From contig CAWGED010000019.1 in assembly GCA_963821525.1 (NCBI GenBank), forward strand, positions 1,032,233 through 1,096,232: a DNA stretch of 64,000 bases, written 5' to 3'. The notes under the pieces were generated by a model. That model was not told the DNA's origin, ran no database searches, and worked only from the letters and a program-made list of their open reading frames with translations. Source of the DNA: an uncultured Gemmatimonadales bacterium (GTDB lineage Bacteria; Gemmatimonadota; Gemmatimonadetes; Gemmatimonadales; GWC2-71-9). Below are positions 5,020 to 39,012 of the stretch, in pieces. The position numbers and the translations under genes are program-made. How positions within the stretch are numbered: position 1 is the first letter of the stretch; each line of letters begins with the position of its first letter.

Positions 5020-6393
5020 ATGAAAACCATCATCGAGCCGTTCCGCATCAAGTCGGTCGAGCCGATCAGGATGACCTCCCGCGAAGAGCGGGAAGCGAAG
5101 CTCAAAGAAGCCGCGTACAACGTCTTCCTGCTGCGTTCTGAAGACGTCCTCATCGACCTCCTCACCGACAGCGGAACCTCGGCGATGAGCTCGGCCCAGT
5201 GGGGCGCCATGATGCGGGGAGATGAGTCCTACGCCGGGAGCCCCTCGTTCTTCCGTTTCGAGGAGGCGGTGCGGGACATCTTTGGCTTCCGGCACGTCCT
5301 GCCCACACACCAGGGCCGTGCCGCAGAGCGTATCCTGTTCTCCGTCATGTGCAAACCGGGAGACGTAGTTCCCAACAACACCCACTTCGACACGACGCGT
5401 GCCAACGTGGAGTTCGTCGGAGCCAACGCGGTCGACCTGGTGATCGCTGAAGGGCGTAAACCGGAGGCGCGGCATCCGTTCAAGGGAAACATGGATGTTG
5501 CCGCACTGGGCCGGTTGATCTCCGAGGTCGGACCGGAGCGAATCCCCCTCTGCCTGATCACCGTCACCAACAATTCAGGCGGTGGGCAGCCGGTTTCGAT
5601 GGAGAATGTGCGGGCGGTCTCTACCCTCTGCCGGACCAACAAGATCCCGCTTTACATCGATGCCTGCCGGTTTGCGGAGAACGCCTATTTCATCAAACAG
5701 CGGGAGAGCGGCTACCTGGACAAGGTACCCCTCGCCATTGCGCAGGAGCTCTTTTCTTACGCCGACGGCTGCACCATGTCCGCCAAGAAAGACGGCATGG
5801 TGAACATGGGAGGGTTCCTCGCTACCAACCAGACATCACTGGCCGATCGGGCCCGCGATCTGCTCATTCTGACGGAGGGATTCCCGACCTACGGCGGGCT
5901 TGCCGGGCGCGACCTGGAAGCGATCGCCGTCGGCCTATACGAGGCATTGAATGAGGATTACCTGCTCTATCGGATCACCTCCACCACCTATCTCGGCGAG
6001 CACATCGCGCGGGCAGGCGTGCCGATCGTTCAACCTCCGGGCGGCCACGCAGTGTACATCGACGCGGCAGCATTCTTTCCGCAGATCCCCAATCTCCAGC
6101 TGCCCGGGCAGGCCCTGGTCGTCGAGCTGTACCGGGAGGCGGGCATCCGCGGGGTCGAAATCGGCACCGTGATGTTTGGGCGACGGGACCCCGAGACCGG
6201 CGTCGAGTCAGCTGCACCGATGGAGCTGGTGCGCCTTGCGATACCCCGTCGAGTGTATACCCAGAGCCACGTGGATTATGTGGTTGAGGCGATCCTTAAT
6301 GTGTGGGAACGCCGGGCGGCGGTTCGGGGCTACCGGTTCCTCGAACAAGCGCCCTTCCTCCGGCACTTCACGGCACGGTTCGCCCCGCTGTGA
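5020..6393 (+). CDS. tnaA: tryptophanase (beta-eliminating lyase)
   Basis: EPFRIKSVEP, DLLTDSGT, PLP-site MSAKKD. C-terminal LRHFTA has His as in tryptophanase, not the RFFT of tyrosine phenol-lyase. Confidence 0.85.
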   Translation: MKTIIEPFRIKSVEPIRMTSREEREAKLKEAAYNVFLLRSEDVLIDLLTDSGTSAMSSAQWGAMMRGDESYAGSPSFFRFEEAVRDIFGFRHVLPTHQGRAAERILFSVMCKPGDVVPNNTHFDTTRANVEFVGANAVDLVIAEGRKPEARHPFKGNMDVAALGRLISEVGPERIPLCLITVTNNSGGGQPVSMENVRAVSTLCRTNKIPLYIDACRFAENAYFIKQRESGYLDKVPLAIAQELFSYADGCTMSAKKDGMVNMGGFLATNQTSLADRARDLLILTEGFPTYGGLAGRDLEAIAVGLYEALNEDYLLYRITSTTYLGEHIARAGVPIVQPPGGHAVYIDAAAFFPQIPNLQLPGQALVVELYREAGIRGVEIGTVMFGRRDPETGVESAAPMELVRLAIPRRVYTQSHVDYVVEAILNVWERRAAVRGYRFLEQAPFLRHFTARFAPL

Positions 6394-6480: not shown

Positions 6481-6996
6481 TCAGGACCGGGCCAGCGCTG
6501 CGCCGTTCACGGGGCAAGTCTCCTCTGGGCATGCGTCCAGTTCGCATAGTCGGCAGATGTGATCGGAGTGCGCGGGACTGCGAGTGATTCCGAACAGGAC
6601 CTTCTCCACCGATCGCATGAACTGGCTTCTCTCGGCCGCGCCCAGGTGACCGAGAGCTGCATCCATGGACTGACGCCGGGCATCGAGGATCCGCTGATAG
6701 ACCCGTTTGCCCGCGGCGGTCAGAAATACCGCGGCCGAGCGACCATCTTTCCCTGCCCGGCGCTCTACGATCCCCTCCTCCTCCAGCCGATCAAGCAGCC
6801 GCACCGTGCCAGAATGGGACAGGTCGAGCGCACGACGCAGGGTCTCAATCGTTTGGCCCGGCTCTCCGCCAACGGTTACGATCGCAGCCGGGCTGGCAGC
6901 GGCATGTCCCGCAATGCCTTCCGTGGCGGCAGAGATCTCATCCCCCAAGGCAACGGCGAGAGCGCCGAGCAGGTTAGAAGAACGAGGGTCACTCAT
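6481..6996 (-). CDS. MarR family regulator with Cys-rich C-terminus
   Basis: wHTH LSHSGTVRLLDRLE...DGRS...LT; tail HICRLCELDACPEETCPV; ATG at 6996. Confidence 0.9.
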   Translation of the reverse strand: MSDPRSSNLLGALAVALGDEISAATEGIAGHAAASPAAIVTVGGEPGQTIETLRRALDLSHSGTVRLLDRLEEEGIVERRAGKDGRSAAVFLTAAGKRVYQRILDARRQSMDAALGHLGAAERSQFMRSVEKVLFGITRSPAHSDHICRLCELDACPEETCPVNGAALARS

Positions 6997-7002
6997 AGGG
7001 CC

Positions 7003-7031
7003 AATATATGACTTACACACATATCTGTCAA
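7003..7031 (-). promoter_or_regulatory. sigma70 promoter of marR (leaderless) overlapped by operator palindrome (copy 1, 7004-7024)
   Basis: Minus strand reads TTGACA-N17-TATATT-N6-ATG. Confidence 0.8.
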
Positions 7032-26924: not shown

Positions 26925-28850
26925 CAGACAGGACCTCCGAGCAATTCTTCCACCGCGCGCCAGGCCTGATCAATGGCCGAATTGGTGTAGGCGAACGCGC
27001 CGGCATCGGCGTTGGCGATCGTGATGCGGCCGAACTGGCCGGCGTCCCACGACGCACGGCTCCTCTCCCTCGGCCCATGGCCCGTCCCACAGCGAGTTGT
27101 ACTCGTAAGTGTAGCCGTGCGGCCAGCGATTGACCGTGATGGCAGTGATGTCTCTGGCCGGATCGAAGCCCGCGGGACCAAACATCCGGCCCAACTGGTC
27201 TCTTACAGCGCGCTCGAAGGTCTCGAACGGGGTTTGAAGTAGTTCTTCGCGTCCTGCTCGATGCTGAACTCGCGAGGGCGAACCGGGTTTGCAGGGAGTG
27301 CGCACCATTTTCACCACCGCCGGGGCATCCGGAGTTCGCGGCGCCTGATAGGCTCCCAGATCAACCGGGAAATCCAGAAAAGTGTTTACCCAGTAGCTGC
27401 CCGGGGCGTAGACATGGGAGACACCGGCTTTCTGAAGTGCTCGCCAGTTGTTGAGCGCGACGTTGGTATACACCAGCGGCACCTTGGCCCCGTATGCGAG
27501 CGCCTGCTTCTGTGTGTCGGACAACTCGGGGCAGAGATAGGGTATCACCATGTTCCAGCAGGCGAGCACACAGGCTCCGGCTCGCACCGACCTGGCCTTT
27601 CCGCCCCGAACATACGTCACCTCGACCTCACGGGCCGAAGCGGGATCGCCCCGATGCTTTACCCGGATCACTGTGCTGTTGAGCCTTATGCGGGTCGAGT
27701 TCGAGGGCTGATCGAGCTTGCCGTACGCGAGGCGGGCGGTCACCACGTCGTCCATCGAATCGCCGGGCAACGCCTGGGGAACCAGGCGGCGGGCGAGGAG
27801 GCGCGCTACTGACGCGTTGCCATCGGGGAAGTGAAAGATGTACGGCTCTTCCTCGTTCATTTCGAGAAGCGGTGTCCGCCCGATGCCCGGACTCGGCTCA
27901 TCGCCATCCAGTTTCAGGCCCTCGAAGCCCGGCATCTCCAACCCCCAGCAATCGAGCGCAGGGATCGCGTCGATTCCTACACCATAGAGATCGTGGGTCA
28001 TGGCCTGGAAGAGAGGAATCACGCCTGGGGCCACCTTCACGACATTGAGCAGGAAGTCCCGATAGCTCATTCGGGCAAGGCGAGCCTTTTTCTCGGATGA
28101 AGTAAGTCCGGGAAAGTGGTTGGCCCGGTTCCCGATTACCCGAAGGATGTCGCGCTTGACCGCCTCGGTGAGGGGTGCCAGGTCGAGAGTCTTCCGGGAA
28201 ATATCAGACACGCTGCCCTGCACCACGCGATCAACTCCGAACGTCTCCCGGTCGAAGAAGATGCCTCTGGTCATCCCGAGCTTCTGATATCGTCCTCGAT
28301 CGAAAGCGGTATAGAAGCGCTGCAGGTCTATGCCGAGGTCCGACAGGAGCCCGCGGGCCACGGTGCTGTACTGTGCGGGACTCTCGATGGACTCGGTTCC
28401 CCCATAGGAGATGAGAAGGCGGTCACCCACGGTGAACTCGTTCCGCTTCGCGTGGCCGCCGAGGTCATCATGGTTGTCGAGCAATAGGATCCGCGCTTCT
28501 GGTCTGGCCTTGCGATAGAAGTAGGCCGCGGCGAGACCGCTGATCCCGGCGCCGACGACGACCAGGTCGTAACGTTCGCCGGTGTCCCGGGTCCGGCCGA
28601 TGGTGGGTTCGAGGGTTCCGTCCCGCAGTTGATGCGCGACTTCGTATGAACCAGGGTGACTTCCGCGGAGTCCGGTCAGTGCCGGTGGGTAGTAGTCAGG
28701 CGCCTGCTCGGGAGCGTAAGTGTCTTCTCCTCCTCGAGTACAACCGAATGGCAGGAGCGCCATCCCCGTGGCGATCGCCAGCCCATCGAGAAAGTCCCGG
28801 CGGCTGATGTTCCGGTCCATTCCGAGTCGGCGATCGCTCGCGTCGGTCAT
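26924..28850 (-). CDS. Tat-exported FAD-dependent oxidoreductase, spermidine dehydrogenase SpdH-like (apparent frameshift near 27035)
   Basis: SRRDFL, YYPPALTGLRGSHPGS, GAGISG, GGHAKRNEF, HFPDGN, VNRWPHGY; C-terminus FGRITIANADA...AIDQAWRAV is in the adjacent frame. Confidence 0.82.
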
Positions 28851-30601: not shown

Positions 30602-31579
30602 TCACCAGCTCGTCCCTACCCTCATAATCAAATCGATCCCCGGTCCGCTGGGGTAGAGATCTTCGGTCAATCCGATCCTCCAATCCCGCCCACCCGACGT
30701 GCGGTAGATCCAGCCGAAATCCAAGTCGAGTTCCTCCCGCTCAAGCGCGGTGGCCTCGGCGTCGTCGTACTGGGGAGAGGCCCAGTAAAGGTTGGCGTAG
30801 AGTGACTGCTTTCCCCAGAACCGGTAACGCAGGCCGGAGGTAAGGGCGATAAAGCTCTGATTCTGAATCTGCTTCAGCGGACCATGGCGGGGAGTGTAGC
30901 CCAATCCAAGCTCGCCCTCATAGGTAAGCCGAGGGGTAATCTGCGCGCGAACTGTGGTAAGGAGGCTCGCCGACACGACACCGCGGCCATATCCGTCCGC
31001 CGCCGTCGATGTCGGGAGAGTCACCGACAGGACCGATTGGACCTTGGGACTAAAGCGGTGACCGGCCCCGATTCGGAGGTCGTTCAGGTGGAAGTTCGAG
31101 CTGGAGTATTCGACCCGAGTTCCGTCGGGATAGCGGTAGTGATAGTCGAACTCGTTCTCGGGTCTCCCTTCCCGCTCCGGAAAACTGATTCCGAAGAGAT
31201 CGTGATACCAATTCAGGAACCCGTCCAGTCCGCCGGCAAAAACCCCACCGACTGACACATCGGCCAGGAGGAAATCATAGGGCCCGAGATCCTTCGCGAT
31301 GCCCAGGCTGAACCGGTAGCTCTCGGCATCGAGCAGAAACGAAGTGTCGGTCGAGAAGCCGAAGGCGAGTTCTGTCATGCTCGCGTAGTCGAGCCCGACC
31401 GCGAGGCGCCACCCGGCTCGTGGCTCTACAAAGGGCTGGAAGTAGATCCCCGAACGGGACTCAACGACCGGGTTGTTGGGATGGTATTCGGGAAGGCCCT
31501 GGGCCGCGGCTGGCTCGAGGACGAATCCGAGCAGAGTTAAGAAGACGCCAAGGCCGGCGAACCCGGCCTCACGCCTCAT
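30602..31579 (-). CDS. DUF3187-like outer membrane protein
   Basis: Signal peptide, GGLDGFLNWYHDLFG, LTEDL, terminal W. Confidence 0.7.
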   Translation of the reverse strand: MRREAGFAGLGVFLTLLGFVLEPAAAQGLPEYHPNNPVVESRSGIYFQPFVEPRAGWRLAVGLDYASMTELAFGFSTDTSFLLDAESYRFSLGIAKDLGPYDFLLADVSVGGVFAGGLDGFLNWYHDLFGISFPEREGRPENEFDYHYRYPDGTRVEYSSSNFHLNDLRIGAGHRFSPKVQSVLSVTLPTSTAADGYGRGVVSASLLTTVRAQITPRLTYEGELGLGYTPRHGPLKQIQNQSFIALTSGLRYRFWGKQSLYANLYWASPQYDDAEATALEREELDLDFGWIYRTSGGRDWRIGLTEDLYPSGPGIDLIMRVGTSW

Positions 31580-32126
31580 CCAGTGATCTCCAGAGGTACC
31601 AGGCGGCGTGAGTGCGAACCGGTCGAAAACGCTCACCGAGCTTTTGGAGAGAGCGTGGGCTTCGAATCCGGTACAGGTTGAGAGCCGCCCGCTGGATCCC
31701 GCCGTCTCCGACGGGCCAGACATCCAGGCGGTTCAAGGAGAAGATCAGGAACATTTCCGCGGTCCAGGCGCCGATTCCTTTCACCGAAGTCAGGCGTTCC
31801 ACCACCTCGGCATCGGGCAGTGTTTCGATCCCGTCCAGGCCGCCCGCCGCAGTGAAGCGGGCCAGCTCACGCAAGTAGACTGTCTTGGCGCGAGAAAGAC
31901 CGGCCGCTCGAAGGGTTCTCACGTTGGCCTTGGCCAGCCGCTCCGGCTCGACCGGAATCCGATCGCGGAGGCGATTCATGATCGCCTCGGCCGCACGGCC
32001 GGAGATCTGCTGGGAGATGATGGCATCCGCCAGCGATTCAAACGCCGGCTGTTGTGAAAGCCGTACGGGTCCATGGCGCTGGCAGAGCCCGGCCATAATG
32101 GGACAACTCAAGAGAACGTCACTCAT
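31569..32126 (-). CDS. alkA: DNA-3-methyladenine glycosylase II (HhH-GPD)
   Basis: IISQQIS, VKGIGAWTAEM, PVGDGG, AAWYLWR. Confidence 0.9.
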   Translation of the reverse strand: MSDVLLSCPIMAGLCQRHGPVRLSQQPAFESLADAIISQQISGRAAEAIMNRLRDRIPVEPERLAKANVRTLRAAGLSRAKTVYLRELARFTAAGGLDGIETLPDAEVVERLTSVKGIGAWTAEMFLIFSLNRLDVWPVGDGGIQRAALNLYRIRSPRSLQKLGERFRPVRTHAAWYLWRSLDEA

Positions 32127-32193
32127 CGTCGCTCAAGGGTAAACCGGCCCGGTAAGCTAAATGTGCCGGGGCGTGAGGTACACCGGCGCGCTC

Positions 32194-32223
32194 TTGACAC
32201 CTTCGGCGAGCGGGGAGTAGACT
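32194..32223 (+). promoter_or_regulatory. sigma70 promoter of the phe leader/pheA-aroF
   Basis: TTGACA-N18-TAGACT; ATG begins 6 nt after the -10. Confidence 0.75.
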
Positions 32224-32228
32224 GGGTC

Positions 32229-32309
32229 ATGATCGGTCACCTTGCGTTCTTCGGCTTTACCGGCACCGGCGCGGCGCGAGTCGCGTTCGGCGGGGTAAGC
32301 GCACGCTAG
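32229..32309 (+). CDS. Phe-rich attenuator leader peptide (26 aa)
   Basis: MIGHLAFFGFTGTGAARVAFGGVSAR*, four Phe codons, between the promoter and a terminator upstream of pheA. Confidence 0.8.
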   Translation: MIGHLAFFGFTGTGAARVAFGGVSAR

Positions 32310-32333
32310 GCTGACCTGACCGGACCCCTCGAC

Positions 32334-32368
32334 GCCCCGCCGGCAATCCGGCGGGGCTTTTCGTTTTT
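32334..32368 (+). terminator. attenuator terminator
   Basis: GCCCCGCCGG-caat-CCGGCGGGGC then TTTTCGTTTTT, ending 13 nt before the pheA ATG. Confidence 0.88.
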
Positions 32369-32381
32369 ACCGGAGAGAACG

Positions 32382-34084
32382 ATGCGCGTTGCGATCCAGG
32401 GCACTCGTGGTTCATTCAGCGAAGCTGCAGCCCGCCAGCAATGGGCCGATGCGGAAGTCGTCGCCTGCCGCGAAGTGGGAGACGTGGTCAAGGCAGTCCG
32501 GGAAGGCCGGGCCGACACCGGATGTCTGGCCATCGAGAATTCGCTGGTCGGCTCGATCACTCCGACGTATGACCTGCTGCAAGAGGCTTTCGGCGACAGC
32601 AAGCTCTATCTGAGCCGGGAGATTCTGCTGCCGGTTCACCACGCGATACTCGGGGTCCGCGATGGGAGCCTGGCTCAGATCAGGCGCGTGCTGTCTCACC
32701 CGGTCGCCCTGGGCCAGTGCAGATCATGGCTCAGCCAGCACCTCCCCGATGCGGAACTGGTGAGTTCCTGGGACACAGCCGGCAGTGCAGAGATCGTGGG
32801 GCGGGAGAACGATCCCGCTCAAGCGGCGATCTGCGCCGCGCATGCGAGCGACGCCTATGGGCTCAAGGTGTTCGAAGACCGGATCGAAGACGACCCGACC
32901 AACCAGACCAGATTTCTCACTTTCGGCAGCGAACGTCCTCCTACCAGCAACACCGTGCCGCAAAAGACTTCGCTCATCGTGTGGCTCGATCACCGGCCGG
33001 GGATGCTGGCCGCGGCACTCCAGGCCTTCGCCGCACGCGGGGTCAACCTGACATCCCTCCAATCCCGGCCGGAGCGATCGGCTCCCTGGACCTATCGTTT
33101 CTACTTCGATGTGGAAGGCGCGACGGATGATCCGCGACTGGCCGAAGCCCTCGAAGTCTATCGAGGCGCTGGCGGCGCGCATCGTGATCCTCGGCACCTA
33201 CCAGGCGTGGCAGCATGAGGGGAAGACTGCCTCACCGGTGGTGATGGCCCCGCCCCAGCAACGCCCGAAGCCCAACGTGCCTCTCTTCGACCGGGCGCAG
33301 CGCTCGGAAGACACCGTGGTGAGGGTCGGCAGCGTGGAGATCGGATCCGGCCGCCCGGTAATCATTGCAGGTCCTTGTTCGGTCGAGAGTGCCGAGATGA
33401 TTCTCGAGACAGCCAAGGCGGTTGCTTCCGCCGGGGCCGATCTTCTGCGCGGCGGCGCGTTCAAGCCTCGCACCTCACCATACGACTTTCAGGGACTGGG
33501 AACCAAGGGACTCAAGTTCCTCGCTGAGGCGCGGGAACAGACCGGCCTCCCGATCGTTACCGAAGTGATGAGCTGGGAGGAAGTGCCGCTGGTCGCGCGC
33601 TACGCGGACATGCTGCAGATCGGCGCCCGGAACATGCAGAACTTCGCGCTGTTGCGAGCGGCGGGCAGGAGCGGCCGGCCGATTCTGCTCAAACGAAACG
33701 GTGGCGCCACGATCGAGGAGTGGCTCCACGCGGCCGAGTACGTGTTGTCTCACGGCAATGACCAGGTGGTGCTCTGCGAGCGCGGAATCCGAACCTTCGA
33801 GCGGGCTACCCGGCATACCCTCGACCTGAACGCGGTGGCTCTGGTGCGGGAGCGGACCCACTTGCCGGTCATCGCCGATCCGAGCCATGCGGCGGGGATG
33901 CGGTCTATCGTACCCATCGCTTGCCCTGGCGGCTTTGGCTGCGGGCGCTCACGGTGTGATCGTCGAAGTCCACCCCGATCCGGACCACGCGCTGAGCGAC
34001 GGCGCCCAGAGCCTGGACCTGACCACGTTTGCTCGATTGGCTGAGAAGATTCGCAGCGGAGAGCCGCGAACGGCGGGGCTCTGA
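32382..34084 (+). CDS. pheA: apparent bifunctional prephenate dehydratase-ACT / DAHP synthase type I-beta fusion (apparent frameshifts near 33157 and 33915)
   Basis: PDT motifs AIENS, SHPVAL.QC, NQTRF, LQSRP. The ACT end ILGTY runs with no stop into [52 protein letters not shown]. Confidence 0.82.
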
Positions 34085-35008: not shown

Positions 35009-35605
35009 TCAGAGGCCCACGTTCGAGGCGCGAGTCACGTGGACGTCCATGAGAGCGTCGAGCAGGCCGATCCGTTCGCGGTAGAGGTTCAGCAGGGCGG
35101 TATCCCGCTCCCGGGCGCGAAGCAACTGCGCCATCTCGAGTTGCCGATCGATGCGGGCGATCTGGTCCTCCAGAGCTCCGGCCATGCCGTCGGTATGGCC
35201 GTCCGTGATGCGGCCATCGGAGTTAAACGACTCGAGGAGCTGCTCCAGTTGCCCTGACCGAGCCATGGCGTCGGAGAGGGCCGGGGAAAGCGTCTTCGAG
35301 GAAGCCGAGGCTCCGTGAAGCAGCAGCATCAAGGCGAGTCCTGCCGCAATGGCGAGTCCGCCGGTCGCCAGACGCCCAGTCCGGACCTGGCGTTCGGCCC
35401 GGAGCCGAGCTTCCACCGCCGGCCAGGAATCGCGGGAGGGTTTAAGAGTCGGCAGTGCCTTGAGGCGCGCTACCCTCTGCTCCAGGCGATCAGCCTCGCG
35501 GCGACATGCTTCGCACTCCGAGAGATGCTTCTCGGCCTCGGCCTGGCCGGGTTCGCGACCGGGCTCCCGCAGCCGAACCAGGGTATCGAGGTCAATGTGC
35601 GTCAT
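35009..35605 (-). CDS. zf-HC2 transmembrane anti-sigma factor
   Basis: HLSECEAC motif, TM helix, ATGA overlap with the sigma gene. Confidence 0.82.
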   Translation of the reverse strand: MTHIDLDTLVRLREPGREPGQAEAEKHLSECEACRREADRLEQRVARLKALPTLKPSRDSWPAVEARLRAERQVRTGRLATGGLAIAAGLALMLLLHGASASSKTLSPALSDAMARSGQLEQLLESFNSDGRITDGHTDGMAGALEDQIARIDRQLEMAQLLRARERDTALLNLYRERIGLLDALMDVHVTRASNVGL

Positions 35606-36141
35606 ACCAGCGTCTCCTCCCCGAGCCAGCGGCGGAGGCGAGTATGTGCGCGCGCCAATTGCGATTTCGAAAAGCTTACTGTCCTGCCCATCATCCCCGC
35701 GATTTCCTCGTGGGTGTATCCCTCGACATCGTGCAGCCACACCACCGCTCGTGAGGTTTCGGGCAAGCGCTCCAGTGCCGCTTCGAGATCCATGCGCAGC
35801 CCGTGGTCGGAGCGGGGGCCCTGATGAGCCTCGTCTTCCAGCTCATCGGTGTCCCGATACTTGTTCCGCCGGAGCCGCATCAGCGCCTTGCTCGCGGCAA
35901 CCGTGCGAATCCAGCCCCAGAGACTCCCTTCGCCCCGATACTGCCGCAGGTTCCGGCAGACTTCGAAGAAGGTCTCCTGCATCACGTCCTCGGCATCTTC
36001 CGAGGTGCGGCAGATCCGCCGGGCCAGGTTGTAGACTGGCGTCTCGAAGGCGCGATAGAGCTCCTCCAGCGCGGCGACATCGCCGGCCCGGGCTTGGGCC
36101 AGGACTACTTCTGCGTTGGGGAGGGGGATGGCATCGGCCAT
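35602..36141 (-). CDS. ECF RNA polymerase sigma factor
   Basis: DAEDVMQETF, LHDVEGYTHEEIA...SKSQLARA; ATG at 36141. Confidence 0.93.
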   Translation of the reverse strand: MADAIPLPNAEVVLAQARAGDVAALEELYRAFETPVYNLARRICRTSEDAEDVMQETFFEVCRNLRQYRGEGSLWGWIRTVAASKALMRLRRNKYRDTDELEDEAHQGPRSDHGLRMDLEAALERLPETSRAVVWLHDVEGYTHEEIAGMMGRTVSFSKSQLARAHTRLRRWLGEETLV

Positions 36142-36152
36142 GGTGCCGATAA

Positions 36153-36179
36153 AGATGCGGGAATCGGGCCTACAGTTGC
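36153..36179 (-). promoter_or_regulatory. putative ECF autoregulatory promoter
   Basis: Minus strand reads GCAAC-N17-CATCT. Confidence 0.6.
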
Positions 36180-36228
36180 AGGGAGGGAGGGCCCGAGGAT
36201 CGGTCCATTCGGCGCCGCAAAGCAACAG

Positions 36229-37687: not shown

Positions 37688-37792
37688 GGGGCCTTTGTGG
37701 TGGGAGATGCGACAACTTGCCGGGCACAGGAAAACCCGTCAAGAGCGGCATTCACGCCACAGCGAGTATGGTATGGGAGTTATACTGGTTGC

Positions 37793-38936
37793 ATGACTGC
37801 GACACGCCCGCCCCAAGCTTCGATGCCCGCACCCCACCTGTGGCTTCATCACCTCCAGGATGAGGCCGACGCGGCATTTCTGTATCGGGAGCTGGCCAAG
37901 GCAGAGCAGGATCCGCGGAGAGCCGCCCTCTACGATGGATTAGCCACCGTCGAGGACCGACACGTAGCGGTTTGGCACAAACTGCTGGAAGACCACGGCC
38001 ACCCAATCCCCTCCATTCGACCCTCGCGCCGGGCCCGGGTGATGAGTTGGGCGGCTCGGCGGTTTGGACCAGGGTTCCTTCTCCCGATGCTGCTCGAGGA
38101 AGAGGGCCGTGAGGTAAAAAGCTATCTCCGACTCTCGCATCAGAGCGCCGAGGAGGATGCCCGCAGTGCAGCGCTGCGCCTGGCCCGTGAGTCGGCGGAG
38201 CATGCAGGATCGCTTGCCGGGCTGAGCGGAGCCGCGGGGGAGCCTTGGCACAAGACCGGGGCGGGCGGCCTGCTCCGCAATCTGGTCTACGGCTTCAACG
38301 ATGGCCTGACCGCCAACTTTGGCCTCGTCGCTGGAATGCTGGGCGCGCAGGGGCACCTCAACATCTCGGGACATGCGGTGGTGGTTGCGGGGATCGCGGG
38401 GATGGTGGCGGATGCGCTCTCGATGGGTTCCTCCGGATACCTCGCCGCCAAGAGCGAGCGGGAGGTGTTCGAGCACGAGATCGCGATGGAGCGGGAGGAG
38501 ATCCGCCTGATGCCCGAGCTGGAGCAGGAGGAGCTGACCCTGCTCTATCAGGCGAAGGGGGTCCCGGAGGAGCAGGCGAAGGAAATGGCCGCCCAGCTCA
38601 TGCTGGACCCGGAGCGCGCACTCGAGGAGCAGGTCCGGGAAGAGCTGAAGATCGGTGAGGCTAATTCACACGCCGTTGCGCGAGGGGTGGATCACCGGAG
38701 TCTCGACCGCCTTCGGCGCCTTCATCCCGGTGGCACCGTTTCTCGTGAGCACCGGCCCGGGCGCGATCTGGACCTCACTCGCGGTATCCATGACGGCTCA
38801 CTTCGGGGTCGGCGCCGCTCGCAGCTTTTTCACCGGCCGGGGAGTCATCCGCAGCGGCTTGGACATGTTCGTGGTGGGGTTGGGTGTGGCCGGAGTGGGA
38901 TACCTGGTGGGGGAGTGGATCACGAAGCTGCTGTAG
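37793..38936 (+). CDS. ferritin/rubrerythrin-like domain + VIT1/CCC1 iron transporter (apparent frameshift near 38662)
   Basis: DEADAAFLY...EDRH...ESAEH; RNLVYGFNDGL, SMGSSGYL; C-terminal TMs in the adjacent frame; TATACT-N6-ATG. Confidence 0.87.
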
Positions 38937-38967
38937 AACTCACCCGCTGGAGCCTCTTCGCTGACCA

Positions 38968-39012
38968 TAGCCTCACCCCCTGACCCCCTCTCCGTGAAAC
39001 GGAGAGGGGGGA
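38968..39012 (+). repeat. REP-like palindrome, left copy
   Basis: TAGCCTCACCCCCTGA CCCCCTCTCCG tgaaa CGGAGAGGGGG GA. Confidence 0.85.

Follow-up and report, generated by a model that had tools for sequence, protein, structure and literature searches.

A probable leaderless leader-peptide attenuator upstream of a fused prephenate dehydratase-DAHP synthase gene in a Gemmatimonadales bacterium

Introduction

In the trp attenuator of Escherichia coli, the position of the ribosome chooses among three mutually exclusive RNA structures, and only segment 2 switches its partner. The E. coli pheL leader is 15 codons long and is led by a Shine-Dalgarno (SD) site. Regulation of this kind is textbook knowledge for Proteobacteria and, more recently, for Actinobacteria; in the literature that we searched, we found no description of leader-peptide attenuation in Gemmatimonadota. 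Here, we analyze an element in a stretch of 64,000 nucleotides (the window) from an uncultured Gemmatimonadales bacterium (assembly GCA_963821525.1, contig CAWGED010000019.1, positions 1,032,233 to 1,096,232). From comparative sequence analysis, we read this element, with a probability of roughly 80%, as a ribosome-mediated transcription attenuator that governs a gene for a fused prephenate dehydratase (PDT), ACT, and DAHP synthase (DAHPS) protein.

Which described systems come closest? The pheL genes are short and carry runs of Phe codons, according to PMC3082878. In Corynebacterium glutamicum, the aroR leader contains Phe-Tyr-Phe and precedes the DAHP-synthase operon (aroR-aroF); Phe limitation raises read-through, while the availability of Tyr is without effect (Neshat et al. 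2014, as summarized in the review PMC11802643). Leaders whose transcripts begin at their own start codon are described in two further sources. The RNA-seq start of Streptomyces lividans trpL1, ilvL, and leuL, among others, is the leader start codon, with hairpins and a U stretch following (PMC8079986), and the ilvB leader of Corynebacterium diphtheriae likewise has its transcription start at the start codon, with hairpins and a U stretch (PMC5784534). The parts of these two sources that were available list no Phe, DAHPS, or PDT example among such leaderless leaders. In mycobacteria, leaderless short open reading frames (ORFs) encoding polycysteine attenuate the downstream genes of their operons, as stated in a preprint (bioRxiv 10.1101/834739).

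Results

The leader element of the window

The element lies on the plus strand. A −35 hexamer TTGACA (32194-32199) and, after an 18-nt spacer, a −10 hexamer TAGACT (32218-32223) form the only sigma-70-like site within 31500-33000, where 0.1 were expected from shuffles. Five nucleotides after the end of the −10 hexamer stands the ATG (32229) of an ORF of 26 codons and a TAG stop (32307-32309), with the translation MIGHLAFFGFTGTGAARVAFGGVSAR (32229-32309). This spacing leaves no space for a 5′ untranslated region (UTR) or an SD site on the leader ORF. Phe is encoded at codons 7, 8, 10, and 20. The clustered codons TTC TTC GGC TTT (Phe7, Phe8, Gly9, and Phe10; 32247-32258) are the candidate regulatory codons, and the last of them, TTT at 32256-32258, corresponds to a UUU that is conserved family-wide. 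A longer in-frame ORF of 78 aa from 32073 was rejected as the leader: it begins upstream of the promoter and overlaps the neighboring HhH-GPD gene, and the upstream in-frame starts are not conserved.

Three structures can be drawn downstream of the aromatic codons. The local hairpin P1 (32256-32299; −22.6 kcal/mol, with a GCGA loop) pairs 32256-32261 with 32294-32299 and 32264-32275 with 32280-32292. The intrinsic terminator T (32334-32368; −24.4 kcal/mol) has a stem of 10 G-C pairs (32334-32343 with 32348-32357) and the loop CAAU and is followed by the T run TTTTCGTTTTT. The third structure is a long hairpin, the putative antiterminator AT (32266-32343; −45.1 kcal/mol), with helices that pair 32266-32280 with 32328-32343, 32283-32294 with 32315-32326, and 32298-32300 with 32310-32312; its apical loop contains the leader stop codon at 32307-32309. 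The 5′ arm of AT consists of both P1 strands and its 3′ arm of the spacer and the left arm of the terminator (T-left), and AT is mutually exclusive with P1 and also with T. P1 is read here as an anti-antiterminator. The entire leader folds at −75.3 kcal/mol (z = −2.7).

The structural gene begins at ATG 32382, 6 nt after a Shine-Dalgarno-like GGAG (32372-32375). The upstream neighbor, a HhH-GPD repair gene (31569-32126, minus strand), is divergent, and thus T ends no upstream plus-strand gene. A first-pass annotation of the window had placed the promoter, the ATG, the 26-codon ORF with Phe at codons 7, 8, 10, and 20, the local hairpin (its hairpin 1:2), and the terminator here, and the positions of all of them were reproduced.

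The element is conserved upstream of the fused gene

A scan of representative genomes identified 217 stretches that encode a relative; the best 80, each from the representative genome of one species, were analyzed. By title, 69 of these loci belong to Gemmatimonadota and 11 are labeled Acidobacteriota or Thermoanaerobaculia. A promoter-anchored search (a −35 element, a spacer of 17 to 18 nt, TAnnnT, and ATG or GTG within 2 to 12 nt) matched the window and 76 loci, and in every case an ORF of 24 to 30 codons follows the promoter. In two further loci (L048 and L073), the ORF is present behind the −10 elements AATACT and GAGACT, which fall outside the search pattern, and in the remaining two (L046 and L049), the gene is preceded by just 54 and 44 nt of sequence, which makes them not judgeable. 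The leader element is therefore found before the PDT-ACT-DAHPS gene in 78 of 78 loci with enough upstream DNA.

Lack of conservation of the ORF or of its Phe codons had been named beforehand as the outcome that would overturn the first-pass annotation; the comparison found the ORF, its frame, the aromatic codons, the local hairpin, and the terminator upstream of the relatives in all 78 usable loci. Alignment A2, which comprises the window and these 78 loci (79 leaders), has ORFs of 21 to 30 codons in every leader, and the core of the terminator stem is nearly invariant in all 79. This conservation supports the core of the annotation as a reading of sequence: a leaderless, Phe-rich leader that would gate a terminator upstream of a PDT/DAHPS gene.

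All 77 rows of the promoter search have a −35-like hexamer (TTGACA in 50) and a spacer of 17 or 18 nt, and the −10 motif TAnnnT is conserved across the family. The leader starts with ATG in 74 rows and with GTG in 3. From the −10 motif to the start codon, the distance is 6 nt in 56 of the 77 rows (range, 5 to 9; 5 in the window), and a gap of 6 nt puts the A of the AUG at the usual +1 position. Judging by this spacing, the leader ORF is very probably leaderless, with transcription starting at or next to the A of ATG 32229. The structural gene, by comparison, is preceded by an SD-like motif in 77 of 81 cases, normally spaced and no more than 20 nt upstream.

A covariance model of P1 plus T, searched over the 64-kb window and the ±3-kb flanks of the 80 loci, found one copy in the window and one per locus, and no further copies that would outline a regulon; the extra matches were the palindromic terminator read on the opposite strand. 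Across the 64-kb window, no Rfam family reached its gathering score, and there was no riboswitch aptamer or T-box match in the Rfam scans of the window. With E values of up to 10 allowed, the region 32050-32500 gave weak matches far below gathering, mostly to the terminator stem, and no leader family.

The 11 loci labeled Acidobacteriota or Thermoanaerobaculia come from metagenome-assembled genomes (L041, L043 to L045, L047, L048, L051 to L053, L057, and L080). They carry the same fused gene (∼70% identity) and the same leader design, with peptides of the R-Y-W type. Such a distribution is suggestive of horizontal transfer, ancient common ancestry, or an error in binning.

Reading frame and codon content argue for translation

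Is the short ORF translated? An open frame alone means little in these leaders, because between the ATG and the leader stop, the other two frames are likewise free of stops in 56 and 42 of the 79. More telling is the distance from the ATG to the conserved UUU, which is 24, 27, 30, 33, or 36 nt and thus a multiple of 3 in 79 of 79 leaders. The aromatic content also follows the frame: aromatic codons make up a fraction of 0.179 in the leader frame versus 0.019 and 0.070 in the other two. Among the six codons that end at the conserved UUU, an average of 4.2 are aromatic (79 leaders), compared to a background of Phe, Tyr, and Trp of 5.4% of residues in 120 of the enzymes.

The aromatic cluster differs between clades. 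It reads A-F-F-G-F-T in the clade of the window, G-F-F-F-(F)-F-T in most of the close relatives, and S-Y-W-F-F-F-T in a Gemmatimonadales clade at a greater distance; in the Acidobacteriota-labeled loci, F-T is preceded by R-Y-W or R-Y-R-x-W. Within the cluster or ahead of it, 38 of the 79 leaders have Tyr and 32 have Trp, and 31 have both. The element had been annotated as Phe-sensing; these 31 leaders carry Tyr and Trp codons as well as Phe. Phe20 is not conserved. Codon 20 of the window belongs to the 3′ strand of P1, and most relatives have Ser at the aligned position; we rejected it as a regulatory codon and regard it as incidental.

The last Phe codon is nearly always UUU, although UUC is commoner in the leaders (180 versus 93), and it is nearly always followed by ACC (A2 columns 37 to 42; 32256-32261 in the window). 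Since this UUU-ACC hexamer is paired with the 3′ flank of P1, RNA structure seems to dictate which codon is used.

Alternative RNA structures across the family

MAFFT misaligns the variable stems of the 79 leaders, and consensus pairs were therefore taken from single-sequence folds. For P1, 89.7% of alignment cells are paired, versus 33 to 58% with slid partners, and 53 cells show changes on both sides of a pair, compared to 25.2 ± 3.2 in shuffles. GC and CG are swapped at two apical pairs, 53:65 (27/21) and 54:64 (42/30). Covariation of the stems had been proposed as a check of the first-pass annotation; it holds for this local hairpin. The mean energy of P1 is −20.0 kcal/mol (mean z, −1.55; z below −2 in 26 of 79).

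The mean energy of AT is −45.8 kcal/mol, with a mean z of −4.16 against dinucleotide shuffles and z below −2 in 75 of 79 leaders. It forms a single unbranched hairpin in all 79, with the leader stop in the apical loop in 71. In AT, 76.1% of cells are paired (34 to 49% with slid partners), and 65 are double-change cells, versus 35.7 ± 4.4 in shuffles, none of which (0/500) reached this number. After realignment with a covariance model, these values became 78.0% and 85, the latter compared to 40.0 ± 4.9. When transcripts were cut before the right arm of the terminator (T-right), the T-left core paired upstream in 77 of 79 leaders, with the 5′ strand of P1 as its partner.

The mean energy of T across the family is −23.2 kcal/mol, and the mean difference between P1 plus T and AT is 2.6 kcal/mol. 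Near-equal energies of the two states are as expected of a switch. When RNAalifold was run clade by clade, two clades yielded P1 and two yielded AT, an outcome that is compatible with two competing structures but not decisive.

Position of the ribosome relative to the hairpins

The coding and structural parts of the leader stand in a fixed register. The conserved UUU lies exactly 10 nt before the shared 5′ strand of P1 and AT in 79 of 79 leaders, and the 3′ end of P1 lies 14 or 17 nt before the leader stop in 69. We modeled the ribosome with a footprint from A−15 to A+12, counted from the first base of the A-site codon. With the UUU in the A site, this footprint covers 49% of the P1 pairs and 12% of the AT pairs; with the UUU in the P site, it covers 82% and 27%, respectively. 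The terminator stays in the minimum free energy (MFE) structure in 55 to 75 of the 79 leaders under every ribosome mask, and of all mask positions, the one at the conserved UUU leaves the T-left core with the least upstream pairing.

The downstream gene encodes a PDT-ACT-DAHPS fusion

The gene downstream of the element (32382-34084, plus strand) was recognized by domain matches as a fusion of PDT, ACT, and type I-beta DAHPS. The ORF from 32382 carries PDT and ACT, and an overlapping ORF in another frame carries the DAHPS domain. Read side by side, the three frames give one continuous PDT-ACT-linker-DAHPS protein with two frame changes. Alignment to the closest public locus (L001; 94.6% DNA identity to the window region) and to the protein P0001 locates 1-nt insertions near 33154 and 33916. 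P0001 is an intact protein of 566 aa, 97% identical across the PDT part, with PDT at 3-184, ACT at 196-261, and DAHP_synth_1 at 317-554. Among the NCBIfam models, those of prephenate dehydratase and of Bacillus-type DAHP synthase match it, and no chorismate mutase domain was among its family matches. The window gene is either mis-sequenced or a pseudogene. The earlier claim that one gene holds both the first shikimate step and the Phe-specific step is thus right for the relatives, which have one protein of 556 to 586 aa, while the window copy is split into three frames by its two insertions.

The relatives are single proteins of 544 to 811 aa (120 matches listed), nearly all with PDT, ACT, and DAHP_synth_1. 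Their source names, where given, indicate Gemmatimonadales, and the fusion is common there. A literature search on PDT-DAHPS fusions returned no paper naming Gemmatimonadota among the matches listed. In these proteins, the ACT domain stands directly before the DAHPS barrel, and Phe binding might regulate both activities.

Other features of the window

The pattern TTGAC-N18/19-TANNNT-N5/7-ATG occurs twice in the 64 kb, versus 0.01 occurrences expected. Its other instance, TTGACA-N18-TATATT-N6-ATG (6994-7031, minus strand), lies directly before a MarR-family regulator gene (6484-6996, minus strand), which, on this sequence pattern, is likely a further leaderless gene. Two such promoter-ATG arrangements suggest that this genome uses leaderless starts at other genes too. 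A beta-eliminating lyase gene (Pfam Beta_elim_lyase; 5020-6393, plus strand) lies divergent to the MarR-family gene. Tryptophanase and tyrosine phenol-lyase belong to this Pfam family, and a link of the lyase to the breakdown of aromatic amino acids is a guess.

Closer to the fused gene, an ECF-type sigma factor gene (35602-36225, minus strand) has a large overlap with an ORF without a Pfam match (35009-35740, minus strand), which follows it and may encode its anti-sigma factor. A VIT1-family ORF (37697-38983, plus strand) matches only positions 1 to 130 of a 214-position profile and has an odd tail, and an ORF for an FAD/NAD-binding oxidoreductase (26970-28850, minus strand) ends in an arginine-rich tail; either may be frameshifted.

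Discussion

A model for ribosome-mediated attenuation

Our data suggest that the element is a transcription attenuator operated by a translating ribosome. A ribosome would load on the 5′-terminal AUG without an SD site, and the leader RNA would have two near-isoenergetic states, P1 plus T or AT alone. When Phe-tRNA is scarce, the ribosome would stall within the run of Phe codons, which ends with a codon 10 nt before P1, and would cover about half or more of P1 and little of AT. AT could then form while the spacer and T-left emerge; T would be blocked, and RNA polymerase would continue into the gene. With ample Phe-tRNA, the ribosome would melt the whole 5′ arm of AT and run to the stop codon at its apex. 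P1 would re-form just behind the ribosome and lock away the 5′ arm of AT, T-left would then pair with T-right, and transcription would end at 32358-32368.

Several of our results weigh against this interpretation. With respect to the structures, P1 alone is not exceptional compared to shuffles, and just 14 of the 27 AT pairs are changed on both sides, a number that 36 of 500 shuffles reach. The consensus pairs of AT and P1 came from folding these very leaders one by one, which inflates their shares of paired cells. RNAalifold on all 79 leaders recovered only the terminator and two further pairs, and the left arm of the terminator is so nearly invariant that the choice of its partner is beyond a covariation test. 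The footprint model also has its difficulties. A ribosome stalled where the aromatic codons of the cluster begin covers no P1 or AT pair, and a ribosome at the stop codon covers just 25% of the AT pairs and leaves the lower AT helix formable in 75 of 79 leaders. In full-length MFE folds, masking at the UUU keeps the terminator core in 75 of 79, versus 67 of 79 in naked RNA, and with this mask, at least 5 of the 7 nt of the T-left core are paired upstream in 4 of 79 leaders (mean, 4.1), versus 77 of 79 in naked RNA. Folding of the alternative states had been proposed as a check of the first-pass annotation; equilibrium folds with ribosome masks fail to reproduce the switch, and the decision must then be kinetic. 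The window leader has just three clustered Phe codons, and the window copy of the fused gene is frameshifted in this sequence. Finally, the role of P1 is one that we infer, and the part given to the upstream Tyr and Trp codons is conjecture.

A more specific version of the attenuator can be stated. All copies, from Gemmatimonadales and from the Acidobacteriota-labeled genomes, would form one family, in which a leaderless mini-ORF senses up to three tRNAs (Tyr, Trp, and Phe) on behalf of a fused enzyme that covers the first common step as well as that of the Phe branch. What decides would be whether a ribosome that has loaded on the 5′-terminal AUG reaches the stop in the apical loop of the ∼78-nt AT, with P1 closing behind it. 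We put this version forward tentatively, with odds clearly below even. If true, it would be a compact attenuator, so far undescribed, that combines initiation, sensing, and release in one hairpin.

Alternative explanations

Could the attenuator work with a shorter antiterminator? The first-pass annotation had segment 2, CGGCGGGG (32288-32295), pair with CCCCGCCG (32335-32342) of T-left once hairpin 1:2 opens, a mechanism in which the long hairpin would be irrelevant. The two octamers are indeed exact complements, and the pairing is extendable to 10 pairs including two G-U; with the first 40 nt of the window leader masked, enforcing it gives −35.7 kcal/mol versus −36.7 kcal/mol for AT, just 1 kcal/mol worse. 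Across the 79 leaders, however, the pairing is barely above shuffles (68.2% of cells paired versus 67.4%, with 9 of 500 shuffles reaching the observed value), only 5 double-change cells were found, and pairs 75:144 and 81:141 are each formed in 8 of 79. In the truncated-transcript folds, T-left prefers A2 columns 48 to 54 over columns 69 to 81 in nearly all sequences. The covariation expected of this stem does not exceed that of the controls, and as a family feature the short antiterminator has to be given up: it is continuous only in the window clade, and it is the long AT that is conserved. We consider it unlikely that the attenuator operates exactly as first drawn; as an alternative antiterminator in the window clade only, the short pairing is possible on these folding models. 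A different concern is that the window copy is a relic, with real frameshifts that make the gene a pseudogene and leave the attenuator with nothing to control. The two insertions relative to L001 and P0001, which split the gene into three frames, would fit this explanation. The leader, the terminator, and the SD motif are nevertheless intact in a region that is 94.6% identical to L001, and the partial profile match of the VIT1-family gene (1-130 of 214) fits scattered single-base sequence errors. We give the relic a modest chance, as a minority explanation.

The two remaining alternatives dispense with the ribosome as sensor or give the peptide a task of its own. If the small ORF were an accident of GC-rich sequence, the RNA could be switched by a protein or a ligand, in the manner of TRAP, PyrR, or a riboswitch. 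Alternative structures and a terminator do exist, and the other frames are often open as well (56 and 42 of 79). Such a switch leaves unexplained the ATG 5 to 9 nt after a conserved −10 element, the restriction of length changes before the UUU to multiples of 3 (79/79), the aromatic enrichment in the leader frame (0.179 versus 0.019 and 0.070), and the in-frame stop in the apical loop of AT (71/79), and the leader matches no Rfam family; we give this alternative hardly any credence. The 26-aa product could instead be a functional small protein, alone or besides its cis role, with selection on the peptide in its C-terminal half. This half is similar between clades (for example, PSGAG), and a trans-acting role is reported for the attenuator leader peptide peTrpL of Sinorhizobium meliloti. 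The conserved C-terminal codons, however, coincide with the stems of P1 and AT, and their variation tracks base pairing, while, apart from the aromatic cluster, the N-terminal part shows no conservation. A function of the peptide itself thus seems very improbable to us. Attenuation by a ribosome that translates the leader remains the explanation that we prefer.

Significance

A well-conserved regulatory family of RNA and peptide, present in 78 species-level genomes, would extend this mode of control to two poorly studied soil phyla, and the element suggests that leaderless initiation serves regulation there. The leaders form a natural series, with Phe only or with Tyr, Trp, and Phe, in which one could ask how the choice of codons tunes an attenuator. 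In the PDT-ACT-DAHPS fusion, expression and perhaps allostery would couple entry into the shikimate pathway to phenylalanine. The long antiterminator with its stop codon in the apical loop and the leaders that mix Tyr, Trp, and Phe codons are possibly of interest to specialists. For genome annotators, the small ORF and the terminator are features that can be marked.

Comparison with known systems

The first-pass annotation likened the element to E. coli pheL and knew of no description in this lineage or of one controlling both steps in a single gene. We agree that the logic is the same: like pheL-pheA (Rfam Phe_leader), the locus has a short, Phe-rich leader, alternative hairpins, and a terminator before a gene that contains prephenate dehydratase. 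Homology to Phe_leader or to other Rfam leaders is undetectable, with no match even at E values of up to 10. The leader ORF here has no space for a 5′ UTR or an SD site, its peptide is longer (26 aa; 21 to 30 in the family) with fewer Phe codons, and the target is PDT-ACT-DAHPS without a chorismate mutase domain. As to novelty, the claim stands for Gemmatimonadota, where we found no description; leaderless leaders and a leader-peptide attenuator of DAHPS are both known in Actinobacteria.

The C. glutamicum aroR-aroF system also places a leader with aromatic codons on DAHP synthase and is a precedent in two respects: the first shikimate step is attenuated, and the aromatic codons are mixed. It belongs to another phylum and controls an operon, whereas one fused PDT-DAHPS gene is the target here, and we liken the two by description. 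The actinobacterial leaderless leaders share with our element the order of leader, hairpins, and U stretch before amino acid biosynthesis genes. They sense other amino acids with peptides of 12 to 18 aa in other phyla, and their starts were mapped by RNA-seq, whereas the leaderless start here is deduced from promoter spacing. The mycobacterial polycysteine ORFs sense cysteine and differ from the present element, which has a canonical intrinsic terminator. As in the E. coli trp attenuator, the structures are mutually exclusive and the position of the ribosome would select among them; unlike in trp, the antiterminator would be a hairpin of ∼78 nt in which both strands of the first hairpin take part and whose apical loop holds the stop codon of the leader.

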